Below are positions 5,442-34,866 of a DNA stretch of 64,000 nt, in pieces. A program made the position numbers and the translations under genes. Each line of letters opens with the position of its first letter. The stretch's first letter is position 1. The DNA is taken from NCBI GenBank assembly GCA_041664385.1, contig JBAYKY010000001.1, forward strand, positions 367 to 64,366, in the 5' to 3' direction. The DNA is from Minisyncoccota bacterium (lineage in GTDB: Bacteria > Patescibacteriota > Minisyncoccia > UBA6257 > GWB1-50-10). The notes under the pieces were generated by a model that had not been told where the DNA came from, did not search any database, and saw nothing but the letters and a program-made list of their open reading frames with translations.

Positions 5442-5645
5442 ATGAAACGAAAAAAGTTGTTGAAATACAGTATTATAGTTGCGCTGGTCATAGTTATTCT
5501 TATCTTTCTCTTGAGTCCAAATCCTCTTATGACTCTGTTTTTAGCATTTTGTTATCTCTTGGTTCTTGCATTTGCAGCTGCATTTGTATGGAGCCTCAGT
5601 AAAACAAATTCGGGAAACGGATATCGGGGAATGTTTAAGAAGTAA
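5442..5645 (+). CDS. Small hydrophobic protein (67 aa, 1-2 TM)
   Basis: Strong RBS AGGAGG 7 nt upstream of ATG; followed by a hairpin terminator. Confidence 0.5.
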   Translation: MKRKKLLKYSIIVALVIVILIFLLSPNPLMTLFLAFCYLLVLAFAAAFVWSLSKTNSGNGYRGMFKK

Positions 5646-5660
5646 AAGGCAGTTTTCATA

Positions 5661-5688
5661 AAGCCGCAGGAATGCGGCTTTCTATTTG
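5661..5688 (+). terminator. Rho-independent terminator
   Basis: AAGCCGCA-GGAA-TGCGGCTT followed by TCTATTT. Confidence 0.6.
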
Positions 5689-5731
5689 AAATTAGTAAAA
5701 TAATTTGTATACTAGAGAGGCATTTGTATAT

Positions 5732-5815
5732 GCGCGGGTGGCGAAACTGGCAGACGCACTACCTTGAGGTGGTAGCGCCCGCAAGGGCTTGCAGGTTCAA
5801 CTCCTGTCCCGCGCA
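5732..5815 (+). tRNA. tRNA-Leu (anticodon GAG), long variable arm; CCA not encoded
   Basis: Acceptor GCGCGGG/CCCGCGC; D-arm GGCAGACGC; anticodon stem CTACC/GGTAG with loop TTGAGGT; long variable arm; T-loop TTCAACT. Confidence 0.85.
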
Positions 5816-5823
5816 CTAATATC

Positions 5824-5850
5824 AAAAGGACGTTTAACAACGTCTTTTTT
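5824..5850 (+). terminator. Hairpin terminator after tRNA-Leu
   Basis: AAAAGGACGTT-TAAC-AACGTC-TTTTTT. Confidence 0.6.
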
Positions 5851-5936
5851 GATATCCATGTCAGTAGGAGTTGAACCGTAGGCCGAAAACCTCGAAGAGA
5901 GGGGGTAGGTCTCGAACATAGCAATGTGAGAGGCAA

Positions 5937-5990
5937 CTCCTGTCCCGCGCACTAATATCAAAAGGACGTTTAACAACGTCTTTTTGATAT
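5937..5990 (+). repeat. Direct duplicate of the tRNA-Leu 3' end (T-arm/acceptor) plus its terminator hairpin
   Basis: CTCCTGTCCCGCGCACTAATATCAAAAGGACGTTTAACAACGTCTTTTT occurs at 5801-5850 and again at 5937-5985, period about 136 bp. Confidence 0.8.
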
Positions 5991-6086
5991 TTAGATTATA
6001 TTGACTATATTCATATTTTATGCGATACTCATTTCAGTTCACGTTTCAAAATAGACAACGTACTTAACAATAAGGAGTTGAACGGT

Positions 6087-6452
6087 ATGAGCAAAATAAC
6101 GATTTTGTTCGTAGAAAGTAGGGGAGAGTGGCACCGGATTTGGGGAGAAATCCTAAAGGACGAATCAAGAGCATTATTCCACGCATCTTCAATCGATGAA
6201 GCAGAAGAACTTTTTCTCGAGCATCCGGAGATAGACATAATCGCAATGAGCGCGTGCATTTCGGGACATGAACCGGACACGATTCAACTTGTGCAAAAAA
6301 TGAGACAATCGTTCAAGGGTCCCATGATTGCGATGTCGAGCATACTCGTACATCGGAAAACACTCTGTGAAGCAGGGTGCAATCTTGAGAGTGAGAAACT
6401 AGTACTCCCTGATCTAGTTCTCAAAATCATCGCCCAAATGGCAATGCAATGA
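6087..6452 (+). CDS. Stand-alone atypical (pseudo-)receiver domain protein
   Basis: CheY-like alternation of hydrophobic strands, but ES replaces the acidic DD pair (KITILFVESRGE) and Ser sits at the expected phospho-Asp position (IDIIAMS); RBS AAGGAG upstream of ATG 6087. Confidence 0.5.
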   Translation: MSKITILFVESRGEWHRIWGEILKDESRALFHASSIDEAEELFLEHPEIDIIAMSACISGHEPDTIQLVQKMRQSFKGPMIAMSSILVHRKTLCEAGCNLESEKLVLPDLVLKIIAQMAMQ

Positions 6453-6493: not shown

Positions 6494-6508
6494 GCGAGGC
6501 AGGGAATA

Positions 6509-7355: not shown

Positions 7356-8438
7356 ATGAATACCTTTTTTAGTATATTTCTCGTAGTTATTCTCGCGATT
7401 GTTATTGGAGGGTTTATTATTCTTTTTCGAATGATGAAAAAGAACGGAGAACCAGACGATGCGCAATCCTTGCTTCTTCTCCAAAATCAAATGCAAACAC
7501 AATTTCAGGAATTAAGACGTTCTGTTGAACGAGGATTCGGTGATTCGGTGCAATTTATGCAACACCAAACGGGAGCATCACAACAAATTATTCGCGATGT
7601 AACTGAACGCCTCACCAAACTCGATGAGACAAATCGCCAAGTGGTTAATTTTGCCGACCAACTTCAATCACTTCAGGATATTTTGAAAAATCCAAAGCAG
7701 CGGGGTATTTTAGGAGAATTTTATTTAGAAACGCTTTTGAAAAATGTTTTACCTCCGGGAAGTTATGAGGTGCAATATCATATGGGAAAAGACGAGAATA
7801 CCGGAAAAGACCTTATTGTTGATGCGGTGGTATTTGTGAAAGATAAAATTATTCCCATTGATTCAAAATTTTCTTTGGAAAACTACAATCGCCTTGTGGA
7901 GGAAAAAGATCCGGTAGAGCGAGAGAAATTAGAAAAACTGTTTAAGAGCGATCTTAAAAATCGCATCGATGAGACTGCAAAATATGTACAACCATCAAAA
8001 GGCACCATGGATTTTGCATTTATGTTTATTCCCCATGAGGCAATTTATTATGACCTCTTGGTGGCTCAGGTGGGTGCAGTGAAGGTGAATACTCGGGATT
8101 TAATCGAATACGCATTTAAAGAAAAGCACGTGATTATCGTGTCGCCAACCTCATTTCTTGCATATCTTCAAACGGTCTTACAAGGACTTAAAGCACTTCA
8201 AATTGAGGAATCTGCAAAGGATATTATTAAGCGCGTAGAAGAATTAGGAAAACATATCGCGAGTTATGAATCATGGGTTCAAAAATTAGGAAATAATCTT
8301 GATACCACAGTGAAGTCTTATAACGCGGCCTATAAAGAATTGGGAAAGATTGATAAAGATGTAATGCGTATTACCAAGGGTGAGGCAGTAATAGAGCCAA
8401 TGGTGCTTGAGTCGCCAACGCATCGCGAAATGGAATAG
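7356..8438 (+). CDS. rmuC: DNA recombination protein RmuC
   Basis: N-terminal TM, central coiled-coil region, C-terminal RmuC nuclease-like region (IPIDSKFSLENY..., FAFMFIPHEAIYY, HVIIVSPTSFLAYL). Confidence 0.85.
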   Translation: MNTFFSIFLVVILAIVIGGFIILFRMMKKNGEPDDAQSLLLLQNQMQTQFQELRRSVERGFGDSVQFMQHQTGASQQIIRDVTERLTKLDETNRQVVNFADQLQSLQDILKNPKQRGILGEFYLETLLKNVLPPGSYEVQYHMGKDENTGKDLIVDAVVFVKDKIIPIDSKFSLENYNRLVEEKDPVEREKLEKLFKSDLKNRIDETAKYVQPSKGTMDFAFMFIPHEAIYYDLLVAQVGAVKVNTRDLIEYAFKEKHVIIVSPTSFLAYLQTVLQGLKALQIEESAKDIIKRVEELGKHIASYESWVQKLGNNLDTTVKSYNAAYKELGKIDKDVMRITKGEAVIEPMVLESPTHREME

Positions 8439-8439
8439 G

Positions 8440-9336
8440 ATGGAAATAGAAATAAAGAACCTTTTTGCATTCTACGACGCTCTTGGGCGGCCTCTTACTT
8501 TTCTAGAAATTCTTACCCATCTTCCAAGCCAAGGAGAAAATACGAAAGAAGTGCGGAGAATACTTGCGAAATTAATTCGGGAAAAAAATATAACAGAAGA
8601 AGAAGGATTTTATGGATTAAAAGGTAGCCATAGCAGCATCTCTCGGAGAAGACAGGATCTCTTGGGTGATATGAAATGGAAAAAGCTCGCGAAACTTTCT
8701 CGATGGTTTCGATATATTCCATTTGTTCAATTTGTAGTTGCAAGTGGTTCTCTTACGTTTGGGAATGTAAATGCACGTTCCGATTTTGATGTGGTAGTCG
8801 GAGTGTCTCGTGGGAGAATGTTTACTGCACGCTATTTTCTTCTTGCACTTTTTTCACTTTTGCACGGAAGACGGATGGACGACGCACATGAAAGTAGCCC
8901 TGATAAACTCTGTTTCAATCATTTTGTCACGCCAGATACCTACGAAAAATTACCCCACAATACATATCGACTCCAACTGTATCGAAATACGATTCCTCTT
9001 TGGGGCGATGAAAATGCCTTGCGAGATTTTATTACACAAAACGCGTGGGCAAACCTTCCTCAAAATAGTGCGTATGATGCACACAGAAACAAGTTTGCAC
9101 CAAGCAATATAAAAACAATATTGGAAAAATTCTTAAAAGGCTTTTTAGGAGAATTTGTTGAGCAAAAGATAATGCGTCCGATTGCAATGAAAAGACTCGA
9201 GAAATATATTGCAAATAAAGAAAATAACGGCCGGGTGGTCGTAAGCGATAAGGAGCTTGAATTTCATTTTAACCTTAACTACGAGAAACAATTCTCCAAT
9301 ATGACTACTTCTTTATCTTGTGAGGATTGTGATTAA
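8440..9336 (+). CDS. Hypothetical protein with nucleotidyltransferase-like motif
   Basis: GSLTFGNVNARSDFDVVVGV resembles the minimal NTase fold signature; the 3' end overlaps the convergent topA by about 30 nt. Confidence 0.4.
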   Translation: MEIEIKNLFAFYDALGRPLTFLEILTHLPSQGENTKEVRRILAKLIREKNITEEEGFYGLKGSHSSISRRRQDLLGDMKWKKLAKLSRWFRYIPFVQFVVASGSLTFGNVNARSDFDVVVGVSRGRMFTARYFLLALFSLLHGRRMDDAHESSPDKLCFNHFVTPDTYEKLPHNTYRLQLYRNTIPLWGDENALRDFITQNAWANLPQNSAYDAHRNKFAPSNIKTILEKFLKGFLGEFVEQKIMRPIAMKRLEKYIANKENNGRVVVSDKELEFHFNLNYEKQFSNMTTSLSCEDCD

Positions 9337-11494
9337 TGCAGGCTTTATTTGAACAACGCTCAGGAATTGTTTTTGTGCCCTCCATCATAAGTGAGTCGCA
9401 AAGGTTACATTTATTACCCGTAGGACGAGACTTCATAATAAATTTGCAGGAAGGGTAGTTTGAGCAGCTAAAAAATGCACCAAAACGCCCACGACGTTCT
9501 ATAATATCGCCATTATCAAGTGGGCACTTCACACCCGTGCGCTTCTTAGCCTCTTCTTCAGGGCTTTGCTTAATATAGTGACAGCCCTTTTTCCCACGAG
9601 ACCAATTGCTGCAGGCAATAAACTTACCAAATCGTCCTTCGCGCTCAAGAAGTTTCCCACCACAATCAGGGCACAATTCTCCTGTTTCTTTTGGTCCTTC
9701 CATAAGGGTGCCATCAAGCTTACGTGCGCCTTTGCATTGTTTTGCCTTATCCTTTTCATCAAAGAGACGACAACTCAAAAATTTCCCTGCACGACCAAGT
9801 TTAATAACCATGGTGCCGTGCGAAGGATCAAGGGGGCAGGTAAAGCGAGTGTCTTCACCAAGGGTGGTGGCTTTCTCTAGTTTTTCTTTTTCCTTCACCT
9901 CCTTTGCAAATGGAATGTAAAAATCTTTCAATACTTTTTTATACTCTTTTTTTCCTTCCGCAATTTCATCAAGCTTATTTTCCATTTCTGCGGTAAATGA
10001 ATCACTGATATAGTTTGCAAAATTCTTTTCCAAGAAATCACTCACTACTTCGCCAGTATCAGTGGGATGAAGTGTTTTGTTTTGTTTCTCAATATAACCG
10101 CGTTCATCAAGAGTGCGGATAATAGCAGCGTACGTACTAGGACGGCCGATTTCTCGTTTCTCAAGTTCCTTCACAAGTCCTGCTTCTGTATAACGCGGAA
10201 GAGGTTCTGTTTCTTTCCCCTCACTTTCTATAGAGACGAGAGTTAATACCTCATCTTTTTCTAAATGAGGAAGCTCACGTTCTTCACCGCGCGCACCCGT
10301 ATCAGCCATAAGCCATCCAGGGAAGATAACAATATTACCGGTCATCGAAAAAAACGGAATCTCAGCACCTTTTGCTTCCGCAACTATCTTAGTACGAAGC
10401 AATTGTGCATCAGTCATTTGAGATGCGAGGGTGCGCTGCCAAATAAGTTCGTAGAGTCGCTTTTGTTCGTCATTTCCTCCCGCACTATGAAGCGCCATCT
10501 TCGTGGGACGAATGGCTTCGTGTGCTTCCTGTGCATTTTTGCTTTTTGTGATGTATGTTCGTGGAGAAAGATATTCCTTACCGTATGTTTTCTCAATTTC
10601 CTTATACATTTCTGCAAGCGCGACTGAACTTAAATTGACACTATCAGTTCTCATATAGGTAATGAAACCTGCTTCATATAGTTTTTGCGCAATACCCATC
10701 GTGCGCGAAGGCGAATATCCAAGACGCGAACTTGCTGCTTGTTGAAGTGTTGAGGTAATAAAAGGAGGTTTTGGCGAACGTTTTGCTTCAGTCTTTTTTA
10801 CTGAAATAATATGCCACGGGTGTGTGCGTGCAGCACTAAGAATGCGCTCTACTTCTTGTTCTTTTTTTGGTTCGTCTTCACAGGTAAGTTCAAGTTCGTA
10901 CTTATCGGTTCTACATTTTGCCTTAATTACCCAAAAATGCTCAGGAATAAAGGCACGAATCTCTCGCTCACGCTCCATAATAATGCGAAGCGCAGGGGAT
11001 TGTACTCGTCCTGCAGAAAGACCATAACGCACCTTCTTCCAAATGAGTCCGGAAAGATCATAGCCTACAAGCCGATCGAGAACACGGCGCGCTTCTTGCG
11101 CTTTGCGGAGATTTTCATCAATGTCGCGCGGATGCTGCATCGCTTCGAGAATGGCGGGCTCGGTAATTTCATGAAATACAACCCGTTTCGGATTTTCTAG
11201 GTTACATGCCTCTTTAATATGCCACGCAATCGCTTCACCCTCTCGATCAGGGTCAGTAGCAAGAAGCACCTCATCTGCTTTTTTTGAAAGTTTGATGAGT
11301 TCTTCAACAATTTCAGTTTTTGCTTTTGATATCTCATAGTGAGGAATAAATCCACCAGGAATATCAATTGCTTTTTTATTACTTTTTGGAAGATCACGAA
11401 TATGCCCAACGCTTGCGCGGACTTTATATTCTCCTTTTAAATATTTTTCGATTGTCTTTGCTTTCGCAGGACTTTCGACAATAACTAATTTCAT
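9305..11494 (-). CDS. topA: DNA topoisomerase I
   Basis: TOPRIM N-terminus MKLVIVESPAKAKTIEKYL; topoisomerase IA core; C-terminal Cys4 zinc ribbons. Confidence 0.92.
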   Translation of the reverse strand: MKLVIVESPAKAKTIEKYLKGEYKVRASVGHIRDLPKSNKKAIDIPGGFIPHYEISKAKTEIVEELIKLSKKADEVLLATDPDREGEAIAWHIKEACNLENPKRVVFHEITEPAILEAMQHPRDIDENLRKAQEARRVLDRLVGYDLSGLIWKKVRYGLSAGRVQSPALRIIMEREREIRAFIPEHFWVIKAKCRTDKYELELTCEDEPKKEQEVERILSAARTHPWHIISVKKTEAKRSPKPPFITSTLQQAASSRLGYSPSRTMGIAQKLYEAGFITYMRTDSVNLSSVALAEMYKEIEKTYGKEYLSPRTYITKSKNAQEAHEAIRPTKMALHSAGGNDEQKRLYELIWQRTLASQMTDAQLLRTKIVAEAKGAEIPFFSMTGNIVIFPGWLMADTGARGEERELPHLEKDEVLTLVSIESEGKETEPLPRYTEAGLVKELEKREIGRPSTYAAIIRTLDERGYIEKQNKTLHPTDTGEVVSDFLEKNFANYISDSFTAEMENKLDEIAEGKKEYKKVLKDFYIPFAKEVKEKEKLEKATTLGEDTRFTCPLDPSHGTMVIKLGRAGKFLSCRLFDEKDKAKQCKGARKLDGTLMEGPKETGELCPDCGGKLLEREGRFGKFIACSNWSRGKKGCHYIKQSPEEEAKKRTGVKCPLDNGDIIERRGRFGAFFSCSNYPSCKFIMKSRPTGNKCNLCDSLMMEGTKTIPERCSNKACINHNPHKIKK

Positions 11495-11595
11495 CCCGTT
11501 AGAGTTTCACTTTTTCTATTTTAATTTTTTTCGACGTCATTTTGCATTATTTGATTTACCACGTTATATAGTTATAAAACTCTAACGGGATTCAT
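11491..11595. repeat. Inverted-repeat element, locus 2: ATCCCGTTAGAGTTT ... 75 bp spacer ... AAACTCTAACGGGAT
   Basis: 15-nt perfect inverted repeat; left arm fused to the topA start (reverse strand reads CTCTAACGGG-ATG-AAA). Confidence 0.8.
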
Positions 11596-11615
11596 AGTCG
11601 TTCTTCTATACTACC

Positions 11616-12497
11616 TTAATTGTTTTTTATTCTAAACTTACCACCCACTTCCTCAATCATTCCCGAGAAAAGAAGAAGGGTAAGCTTCTCACTTACAATA
11701 TGAGGTTGTAGTGTAGTCAGCTCAAGTATTTTGTCAATTGTGAGAGGTTCGCGTGCACTTGTAAGTGTATTCACAATTTGTGATTCGACTTCGCTTAATG
11801 AGGCAGTATTTTCTTTTATAGTTGTGGGAGAAGAGGATGATTCCACCCCGAGATCCTCCAAAATATCTGCACAACTTGTCACAAGACGCGCACCATTTCG
11901 AATAAGCATATGAGAGCCTTTATAATTGACGCTTTTTACGCTTCCGGGGAAGACAAAAACCTCACGCCCTTGTTCAATCGCATTGCGTGCAGTAGCAATT
12001 GAGCCAGAGCGCAAAGGTGCTTCGATAACAATAGTTGCAATAGAGAGACCACTCACAATACGATTTCTCTCAAGAAACTGACTTGGATATGCGGGAGTTC
12101 CTTCGGGATACTCTGAAATGAGACACCCGCCAGATTCGAGAATGTGTTCTGCGAGATGCTCATGCTGACGAGGATAGACAGCATCTAAACCATTTGCGAG
12201 CACTGCGATAGCGCGTCCATTTGCTTTAAGTGCTCCTTCGTGCGCGGCGCCATCAATACCAAGTGCGAGACCACTTACAATAGTAATACCTCGTAAGACA
12301 AGTGATTCGGCAAGCTCGTGTGCAAGTACCAACCCTTCGCGTGATGCTTTGCGCGTCCCCACAATAGCAACACATGATTCACGTGACGTAGGAGGTATGC
12401 CACGATAGTAAAGTGTTTTAGGCGCTCCAGGAATTTCGAAGAGAAGAGAGGGATACAATTTTGATTCTTCGTGTAGAACACACACCGGAAGTTTCAT
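11616..12497 (-). CDS. dprA: DNA processing protein DprA (Smf)
   Basis: Rossmann-like DprA core GLALGIDGAAHEGAL...AVLANGLDAVYP...RSGSIATARNAIEQGREVFVFPG. Confidence 0.88.
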   Translation of the reverse strand: MKLPVCVLHEESKLYPSLLFEIPGAPKTLYYRGIPPTSRESCVAIVGTRKASREGLVLAHELAESLVLRGITIVSGLALGIDGAAHEGALKANGRAIAVLANGLDAVYPRQHEHLAEHILESGGCLISEYPEGTPAYPSQFLERNRIVSGLSIATIVIEAPLRSGSIATARNAIEQGREVFVFPGSVKSVNYKGSHMLIRNGARLVTSCADILEDLGVESSSSPTTIKENTASLSEVESQIVNTLTSAREPLTIDKILELTTLQPHIVSEKLTLLLFSGMIEEVGGKFRIKNN

Positions 12498-13351: not shown

Positions 13352-13423
13352 GGGTGTGTAGTTCAGTGGTAGAACGCTGTCCTGATAAGACAGAGGTCGA
13401 AGGTTCGATTCCTTCCACACCCA
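13352..13423 (+). tRNA. tRNA-Ile (anticodon GAU)
   Basis: Acceptor GGGTGTG/CACACCC; anticodon stem CTGTC/GACAG with loop CTGATAA; T-arm GAAGG-TTCGATT-CCTTC. Confidence 0.85.
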
Positions 13424-13507
13424 CAAAGAAAGGCCTTGTGAGGAGGTCTTTTCTTTACAAAGGGGGTTGTGCGAAGATTTTTGAAAACAATGAATATGGG
13501 CCTGTAG

Positions 13508-13584
13508 CTCAGTTGGTTAGAGCGCCTCATTTGCAATGAGGAGGTCACCGGTTCGAATCCGGTCAGGTCCACCAAAATTGTTGT
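13508..13584 (+). tRNA. tRNA-Ala (anticodon UGC), CCA encoded
   Basis: GGGCCTGTAGCTCAGTTGGTTAGAGCGC; anticodon stem CCTCA/TGAGG with loop TTTGCAA; ends GGTCCACCA. Confidence 0.88.
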
Positions 13585-34700: not shown

Positions 34701-34771
34701 GTGGGATTGGTTCAGTGGTAGAATGCGACCTTCCCAAGGTTGAGACACGGGTTCGATTCCCGTATCCCGCA
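34701..34771 (+). tRNA. tRNA-Gly (anticodon CCC)
   Basis: Acceptor GTGGGAT/ATCCCGC (one G-U pair); D-arm TGGTTCAGTGGTAGAA; anticodon stem CGACC/GGTTG with loop TTCCCAA; T-arm ACGGG-TTCGATT-CCCGT. Confidence 0.8.
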
Positions 34772-34777
34772 CTAACA

Positions 34778-34808
34778 CAGGATGGCCAAGAGGCCATCCT
34801 GATTTTGT
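34778..34808 (+). terminator. Rho-independent terminator after tRNA-Gly
   Basis: CAGGATGGCC-AAGA-GGCCATCCTG followed by ATTTT. Confidence 0.7.
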
Positions 34809-34814
34809 TGGGAT

Positions 34815-34866
34815 GTGGGAATAAGGAAAGGGGTCGGGAAAAACGATATTCCCGTATCCCACACTA
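34815..34866 (+). repeat. Truncated tRNA-Gly-like minihelix (acceptor GTGGGAT + T-arm-like hairpin + ATCCCACA)
   Basis: ATTCCCGTATCCCACACTAA nearly repeats the tRNA-Gly 3' end TTCCCGTATCCCGCACTAA about 90 bp downstream; matching 5' acceptor GTGGGAT present. Confidence 0.7.

Follow-up and report, generated by a model that had tools for sequence, protein, structure and literature searches.

The window, a 64,000-nucleotide stretch of DNA from a Patescibacteria bacterium (candidate phyla radiation, CPR) of Paceibacterota, carries behind its tRNA-Leu(GAG) gene a second, exact copy of the 3′ end of that gene and of the hairpin that follows it. We put at about even the chance that this 52-nt repeat is the common head of two head-to-tail units of a tRNA-end module resembling RtT (RF00391, gene rttR), which has been described as an RNA released from the tyrT transcript and whose role is unclear. 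The module is most likely both a read-through RNA and DNA that is polymorphic for insertion and deletion (indel). Units of this kind are inserted or deleted at the repeated tRNA ends, stand in arrays of one to four and occur behind at least two tRNAs with ends that match the local tRNA. In a well-sampled sister type, the helix between the tRNA end and a segment complementary to it (“anti-T”) is kept, together with three inner hairpins, by compensatory changes on the tRNA-sense strand.

In this plan, a unit opens with the last ~19 nt of the tRNA from the T loop, a short trailer and an A/U-flanked hairpin, and continues with a conserved ATCCAT..CAG, the anti-T as complement of the tRNA T loop, T stem and acceptor 3′ strand, a variable structured core and the next tRNA-end copy. 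The first tRNA-end copy completes the live tRNA gene and the next closes the unit, so that the pair resembles attL/attR. Transcripts from the tRNA promoter (5686-5713) would run past the first hairpin and include the unit, whose closing helix and single-stranded acceptor-like tail may present a tRNA-like 3′ end. The tRNA 3′-end processing enzymes would trim this pseudo end and release a small stable RNA, like the rtT RNA of Escherichia coli, and gain, loss and homogenization of units would proceed via recombination between the repeated tRNA ends.

The repeat behind tRNA-Leu(GAG)

The tRNA-Leu(GAG) gene (5732-5816, + strand) is of type II and has no encoded CCA (ARAGORN; Rfam tRNA 47.7 bits). 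A repeat search returned a single direct repeat without mismatches, CAACTCCTGTCCCGCGCACTAATATCAAAAGGACGTTTAACAACGTCTTTTT, which covers 52 nt at 5798-5849 and again at 5934-5985 (spacing 136) and is prolonged through GATAT to 5855 and 5990 if a 1-nt indel in the T run is allowed; a chance origin is ruled out for an exact repeat of this length. The features of the locus are, in order:

5686-5713, + strand: promoter-like TTGAAA-16-TATACT before tRNA-Leu (consensus match only)
5732-5816, + strand: tRNA-Leu(GAG), whose last 19 nt (5798-5816) begin repeat copy 1
5798-5849, + strand: repeat copy 1, which takes in the tRNA 3′ end from mid T loop onward, the trailer CTAAT and a hairpin (to 5855 with the 1-nt indel)
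5818-5856, no strand assigned: hairpin 1, AATATCAAAAGGACGTT / AACGTCTTTTTTGATAT, terminator-like, flanked by an A tract and a T tract
5862-5884, + strand: anti-T segment, with its core AGGAGTTGAACC at 5866-5877
5878-5933, + strand: variable core of unit 1, in which two small hairpins are predicted
5934-5985, + strand: repeat copy 2, of which 5934-5952 is a pseudo tRNA 3′ end, followed by the identical trailer and hairpin
5954-5991, no strand assigned: hairpin 2, a copy of hairpin 1 minus one T

Copy 1 is the live 3′ end of tRNA-Leu from the T loop (TT|CAACT), followed by the 5-nt trailer and the hairpin; its order is T-stem and acceptor 3′ strands, discriminator, trailer, and hairpin between A tract and T tract. 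The two copies are separated by 84 nt, the 136-bp spacing unit holds no gene or open reading frame (ORF), and the pseudo tRNA end at 5934-5952 closes unit 1 and opens unit 2. The anti-T core AGGAGTTGAACC is complementary over all of its 12 nt, without mismatch, to the T loop and T stem of the tRNA (5794-5805). This complementarity is prolonged into the variable arm of the tRNA via G.U pairs, and the anti-T also pairs over 9 bp with the distal repeat copy (5934-5942). The stretch from the tRNA end through hairpin 1 to the anti-T is a single imperfect palindrome, ~85 nt long. The core of unit 1 ends in a purine-rich CGAAC...GAGAGG motif that is common to other units. Judged by its match to the consensus, the putative promoter at 5686-5713 is the only plausible one for tRNA-Leu and for read-through into the module.

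The sequence-only reading had described a 49-nt duplicate, which is the 3′ part of the 52-nt repeat (5801-5849, written there as 5801-5850 and thus off by one, and 5937-5985). The GGAGTTG...CAACTCC pairing that it pointed out is real and appears as the 9-bp closing helix in the fold, and its statement that the insert is not a canonical tRNA is borne out by ARAGORN and Rfam, which call only 5732-5816 and neither a tRNA nor a transfer-messenger RNA in 5817-5990. No Rfam family matches the insert, either at the gathering threshold or at E<=10, the tRNA gene being the only match. A group I intron of a Patescibacteria tRNA was also considered and rejected: such introns sit in the anticodon loop, including position 35/36 (PMC13011429), and here site and size are wrong, the tRNA is intact upstream and no Rfam intron model matches.

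Units in related genomes and behind a second tRNA

Three neighboring genes, which encode an S41 peptidase, a 114-aa membrane protein and L27, served to retrieve related loci (L numbers). A homologous unit with 5 substitutions (80/85 identical) is found in the sister species (L005/L064), whose peptidase is 87% identical. This species has, in addition, a unit b, whose first 85 nt in L005 (tRNA end, then hairpin, ATCCATGTTAGG and anti-T) exactly repeat those of the first unit. Among more distant Paceibacterota, one to four analogous units stand behind tRNA-Leu(GAG) at L007, L021, L052/L075/L076/L082, L058, L068 and L069. The window has one unit plus a gene-bearing one, L005 two, L021 three to four (a, b and a partial fourth) and L079 none. 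There is no clear unit at L009, L018, L019, L066 and L079/L080, and L006 and L010 have no second tRNA-end copy, with a possible decayed remnant behind tRNA-Leu. At L010 (8594-9100), ~500 nt of G+C-rich sequence with no evident ORF or tRNA-end copy lie 3′ of tRNA-Leu(GAG).

We call the L075 type (the sister type) “type 1” and the type of the tRNA-Leu unit of the window “type 2”. The window and L075 units are alike in their left part, which comprises CACTAATA, a hairpin with a covarying stem, ATCCAT..CAG and AGGAGTTGAAC, but their cores differ. Subterminal motifs on the left and right (AGGAGTTGAAC/GAAAGGGGTCG; CGAAC..GAGNGAG) are conserved among units.

Two further members of the feature list show that the family is not confined to tRNA-Leu:

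34701-34772, + strand: tRNA-Gly(CCC), followed by a terminator at 34778-34801
34810-34864, + strand: second family member in the window, behind tRNA-Gly(CCC)

In the tRNA-Gly unit, the anti segment GGGATGTGGGAAT lies at 34810-34822 and the motif GAAAGGGGTCGGGAAAA at 34826-34842, and the 3′ end of tRNA-Gly is copied as ATTCCCGTATCCCaCAC at 34848-34864. GGGATGTGGGAAT and ATTCCCGTATCCCaCAC form a closing helix of 13 bp (13/13 pairs, two of them G.U), and the single change of ATTCCCGTATCCCaCAC relative to tRNA-Gly (G to A) turns U2.G71 into U-A; the fold of the unit has z = -3.3. The motif GAAAGGGGTCGGG and a hairpin are common to the tRNA-Gly unit and the tRNA-Leu units of L007, L021, L052 and L068, and therefore the ends follow the local tRNA and the core is common. 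The sister species lacks the tRNA-Gly unit. Elsewhere in the window (13352-13574), tRNA-Ile(GAT) is next to tRNA-Ala(TGC) in the manner of an rRNA spacer, with no unit behind either; an Rfam scan at the gathering threshold found no rRNA gene in the window.

At L079/L080, which encode the L27 protein of L075, tRNA-Leu is directly followed by AAGAAAGAATCCCGCTTTTGCGGG, the trailer and terminator that follow the distal tRNA-end copy in L075, L076, L082 and L058. L079/L080 represent a clean empty site, and L075 and L058 are occupied. Because the same trailer and terminator follow either a single or a distal tRNA end, the ~188-bp type 1 unit was either inserted or deleted, with the repeated tRNA ends as exact boundaries. 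The empty allele is known for the sister type, and none was found for the window's own unit. The T loop of the distal copy is of the unit type GTTCAATTTCC and that of the tRNA is GTTCAACTCC, as expected if exchange took place inside CCTGTCCCGCGCAC. The hairpin loop is GTTTAAC in the two copies of the window and GTTCAAC in the two of L005, which are identical over their 85 nt; such identity of copies within a genome, in species-specific states, indicates probable recombination or conversion between copies. Many contigs start or stop within tRNA-Leu(GAG) or the unit (L053, L054, L055, L057, L059-L061, L073, L074 and L081), which fits a strain-variable repeat.

The same observations bear on a DNA-only explanation, which we consider possible but rather doubtful, namely that the unit is a miniature non-autonomous integrative element or a decayed remnant, of the cis-mobilizable element (CIME) type, of a tyrosine-integrase element that targets tRNA genes. 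The element would bring the tRNA end and terminator, the displaced original end would be attR, and the core motifs would be sites for a recombinase or accessory proteins. This accords with direct repeats that run from the T loop to the tRNA end and beyond, as at many tRNA att sites, with the clean empty site (L079 as opposed to L075/L058) and the element-type T loop in the distal copy, with the conserved subterminal motifs, and with tandem units that resemble the accretion of CIMEs, i.e., decayed integrative elements accreting beside newly integrating ones (PMC5704250). Against it stands the lack, in the part of the genome covered, of an integrase in or beside any unit and among the eight integrase-sized window ORFs that were checked (277-340 aa; DprA, DsbD-like, Dus, metallophosphatase, NT5C-like, YceG and two unknowns). 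Nor was there a kilobase insert or parent element at the site in the ~25 related loci. In IMG/VR, three scans with motifs and one with a tRNA end produced nothing beyond chance or coding matches, and none at all to the tRNA-Leu end, and blastn searches matched only tRNA-Leu genes in phage records and nothing in plasmids. Circles of only 136-190 bp would, in addition, be improbable substrates for recombination. The earlier interpretation of the duplicated ends as an att scar therefore stands in part: repeated tRNA ends do bracket inserted DNA, absent in L079 and present in L075 and L058, but neither a tyrosine integrase and parent element nor a larger insert in relatives came to light in these searches. 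The DNA-only explanation is compatible with the RNA one; the RNA may well be encoded by a mobile unit.

A one-off accident, i.e., tandem slippage, a deletion remnant of this genome or an assembly artefact, would agree with the exactness of the repeat, the shortness of the insert and the lack of a significant fold of the window unit alone, but is extremely improbable and is refuted by the comparative data. The stretch 5640-6090 is 100% identical in two metagenome contigs from different samples (JGI 3300037810 and ENA ERZ27249449; exact-protein look-ups of L27, L9 and the 121-aa gene described below returned the same two contigs only), and because of this agreement of three assemblies from two samples an assembly artefact is excluded. 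The sister species retains the unit, and the sequence 3′ of copy 2 differs from that 3′ of copy 1, which rules out a simple tandem duplication. Among the origins offered by the sequence-only reading, a mini non-autonomous element comes closest, and slippage or a deletion remnant is excluded since the family sits behind two different tRNAs in several genera.

A second unit position of the window is occupied by a gene. Behind hairpin 2, the sister species has an anti-T and an 85-nt core (unit b), and the window has an 83-nt stretch instead, followed by coding sequence:

6001-6029, + strand: promoter-like TTGACT-17-GATACT, within the 83-nt stretch that is absent from the sister species
6073-6083, + strand: third AGGAGTTGAAC, homologous to the anti-T of sister unit b (AGGAGTTGAACCGTAGG, compared with AGGAGTTGAACGGTATG in the window)
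6087-6452, + strand: 121-aa gene, in the place of the core of unit b in the sister species
6494-6508, + strand: GCGAGGCAGGGAATA, which resembles the right-end motif of other units (L021b GAGGCGAGGGAA|ACTCC)

AGGAGTTGAACGGTATG doubles as the Shine-Dalgarno and start region of the 121-aa gene (6087-6452), whose ribosome-binding site is a copy of the unit anti-T (AGGAGTTGAAC). The encoded protein is one of a genuine family (606 cluster representatives at E<=1e-3, no Pfam match), with hundreds of distant relatives of equal size. A terminator lies between the gene and GCGAGGCAGGGAATA, no tRNA-end copy follows GCGAGGCAGGGAATA, and homology to the sister species returns at TTGACA (6509); neither the gene-bearing unit of the window nor unit b of L005 closes with a tRNA-end copy.

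Some further observations concern these loci. The distal tRNA-end copies at L007 (8325-8340) and L021 (6304-6322) are followed by CCA (CGCGCACCA), and the live tRNA-Leu genes there have none. Retro-copying from mature tRNA was considered for the CCA after the L007 and L021b copies and rejected, two related cases being too few and the CCA being possibly an ancestral trailer. Strains with identical 114-aa or L27 proteins differ in the genes 5′ of the inverted tRNA-Leu (201, 189, 167 and 239 aa), and this variation (loci L052-L057 and L075-L082, tRNA-Leu to the 114-aa gene) is a second variable spot at the same tRNA. In the window, genes for RmuC, topoisomerase I and DprA (a DNA-uptake recombination mediator) lie at 7356-12497, within 6 kb downstream of the tRNA-Leu locus.

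Structure of the units

The structural evidence comes mainly from type 1, whose consensus fold (RNAalifold) has a closing helix of anti-T and tRNA-end copy and three hairpins, with fold z scores of -3.5 to -5.1. A covariance model (R1), built from six type 1 sequences, matches in 0.39 Mb of related loci only these units, contig-end fragments and, weakly, the tRNA-Gly unit. In the alignment A6, 95.3% of the cells pair, compared with 32-50% in slid controls, and both sides change in 19/38 pairs, values reached by 0/500 shuffles, although A6 was fitted to the model structure, which inflates the pairing and covariation figures. In the raw sequences, the P2 hairpin of L058 is wholly replaced (CGCCCCGCC/GGCGGGGCG versus CGGGGAAAC/GTTTCCCCG) and P3 has four double changes between L075 and L068. 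The closing helix of the sister type has 14 bp and covaries. Cells with G.U or U.G number 26 in the type 1 alignment, versus 2 with A.C or C.A, which assigns the folding to the tRNA-sense strand, whether RNA or single-stranded DNA. Protein-binding sites, as in the DNA-only explanation, fail to account for this 26:2 excess and for hairpins that are replaced but still paired.

For the window's own unit, which as type 2 was compared with the sister species and L021b only, the evidence for a structure is weak. Its predicted fold has a 9-bp closing helix (anti-T with the distal copy), a small multi-hairpin part and a free 3′ tail, CCCGCGCAC. A fold common to the window unit and type 1 was considered and rejected in view of the limited R1 match described below.

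Several points weigh against a structured read-through RNA of the RtT kind, besides the fitting of A6 noted above. The fold of the window unit has a z score of only -1.0 to -1.4, no better than shuffled sequences, and none of its 5 substitutions relative to the sister species is compensatory, two of them opening ends of the closing helix. Model R1 matches just the tRNA-like end of this unit, and the G.U strand asymmetry of type 1 suits folded top-strand DNA equally well. A strong hairpin and T run lie between the tRNA and the unit, there is no promoter ahead of the unit, and its transcription is assumed. The RtT model has no match on the CPR units at E<=10; homology with RtT is unproven, and the feature is therefore classed as working like RtT but outside RF00391.

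According to the sequence-only reading, an insert conserved in relatives and supported by covariation would be a functional RNA rather than an integration scar. The sister species does keep the insert and the sister type covaries, but the window unit has no compensatory change. The expectation is thus borne out in part, and, on account of the conservation in the sister species, the covariation in the sister type and a layout equal to that of RtT, the module behaves both like an insertion and like a structured RNA.

Strand-specific folding and palindromes also recall integrons, and an integron-like system of cassettes exchanged by hairpin recombination (attC x attI) would be a further, though very unlikely, explanation. 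The single strand of tRNA end, hairpin and anti-T would fold and mimic a double-stranded target in the tRNA gene, and a recombinase acting in trans would insert cassettes, either non-coding cores or genes such as 6087-6452, beside the tRNA. Like attC sites and clusters of attC sites lacking integron-integrases (CALIN), the units have imperfect palindromes (~60-140 nt in those systems) between variable cassettes, the content here including a real gene; the ~85-nt palindrome is exactly the block repeated in L005. In the window, GTTCAAC/GTTGAAC fits the integron R′′/R′ consensus RYYYAAC/GTTRRRY, and in L068 and L075 the anti-T suits the live tRNA better than the distal copy of the unit itself. 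However, the consensus fails in other members of the family (L007 ATTCGAAT, L068 ATTGAAC and the tRNA-Gly unit GTGGGAAT), for which reason a strict integron attC is rejected. No IntI-like gene was found, the covarying helices P2-P4 lie inside the “cassette” and not in the palindrome alone, and the anti segment of L021a pairs 19/19 with its own distal copy, not with the live tRNA. Unlike attC, moreover, the palindrome is made from the 3′ end of the neighboring tRNA itself.

RtT repeats and the meaning of the CPR units

The closest known counterpart of the module is RtT. The tyrT-tyrV locus of E. coli (NC_000913.3; L125 = K-12 1286000-1287800) holds four RtT units (RF00391, 133-138 bits). The 178-bp unit opens with GGGGAAGGAT, the complement of the tRNA-Tyr end ATCCTTCCCC, and closes with ...GAGTAATCCTTCCCCCACCACCA, a 19-nt copy of the tRNA-Tyr end from the T loop (reference end AATCCTTCCCCCACCACCA). 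In the RF00391 consensus, GgGaaGG pairs with CCuuCcC and the tail is ccaCCACCA; covariation support for the RtT structure is discussed in PMC8250186. The number of RtT copies following tRNA-Tyr is 1-4 among E. coli genomes, and the best-matching place of a few genomes covered just the tRNA-Tyr portion of the query, so that RtT copy number is polymorphic within the species.

RtT and the CPR unit both lie directly behind a tRNA gene on the same strand (5817-5952 after 5732-5816 in the window) and end in a copy of the 3′-terminal ~19 nt of the tRNA (5934-5952 = 5798-5816). Both have a 5′ complement of the end copy with a closing helix, a free acceptor-like 3′ tail and inner hairpins, and both occur head to tail in variable copy number (1-4 in E. 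coli, 0-4 in CPR). The two also differ. A scan with all Rfam models (cmscan, E<=10), which recovered the four E. coli units, gave no RF00391 match in the window at 5600-6100 or in L021 at 5800-6400, and R1 aligns end to end on RtT at 5-7 bits (E 0.14-0.44 in 1.8 kb). The CPR units stand behind tRNA-Leu(GAG) and tRNA-Gly(CCC) rather than tRNA-Tyr, and each tRNA-end copy is followed by a terminator-like hairpin, an element missing from RtT. Their closing helix spans T loop and T stem rather than T stem and acceptor, the window copies have no encoded CCA, one unit position has a protein gene, and the host is a member of the Patescibacteria rather than an enterobacterium.

Other systems share single traits with the units. 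The sRNA 3′ETS-leuZ of E. coli is cut from a 3′ external transcribed spacer (3′ETS) of a tRNA, and the RNA of a CPR unit would likewise come from a tRNA trailer via the tRNA-processing enzymes. In contrast to the units, 3′ETS sRNAs have no second tRNA-end copy or anti-T and are neither repeated nor polymorphic for insertion and deletion. As at tRNA att sites and in CIMEs, direct repeats of the tRNA 3′ end flank an insert that restores the tRNA, units accumulate in tandem, and relatives have empty and occupied alleles. Integrase islands measure kilobases, whereas the CPR units have 60-190 bp, and for the latter no integrase, parent element, or viral or plasmid counterpart was found in the searches described above. 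Furthermore, the units have helices that covary and are specific to one strand, as well as a complement of the target, and an att scar needs neither.

A more far-reaching proposal, which we regard as unlikely, is that RtT-like units form a cross-phylum class of tRNA-anchored mobile RNA/DNA modules. The anti-T would then be a guide that matches the tRNA gene to be targeted at its 3′ end, and would direct insertion beside the tRNA. This could involve an RNA-guided recombinase in trans or a single strand folded in imitation of the target duplex, and the covarying core would be the part recognized by the machinery. If this were true, the RtT repeats of E. coli, 40 years old, would be the enterobacterial branch of a new targeted mobile element, and such elements could carry genes too.

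Duplicated tRNA ends are usually taken as integrase scars; in this family they mark structured units, tiny and without genes, whose gain and loss takes place behind the tRNA genes of ultra-small CPR bacteria with reduced genomes. If related to RtT or convergent with it, the CPR units would add a spot where small genes get swapped in and out, a practical reason for the breaking of CPR contigs at tRNA-Leu, and a candidate RNA family, without an Rfam match at E<=10 in the two module regions scanned. They would also provide a large set of independent and divergent cases, combining strong covariation and empty sites with ends that follow the local tRNA, by which the purpose and spread of RtT-type RNAs could be tested.

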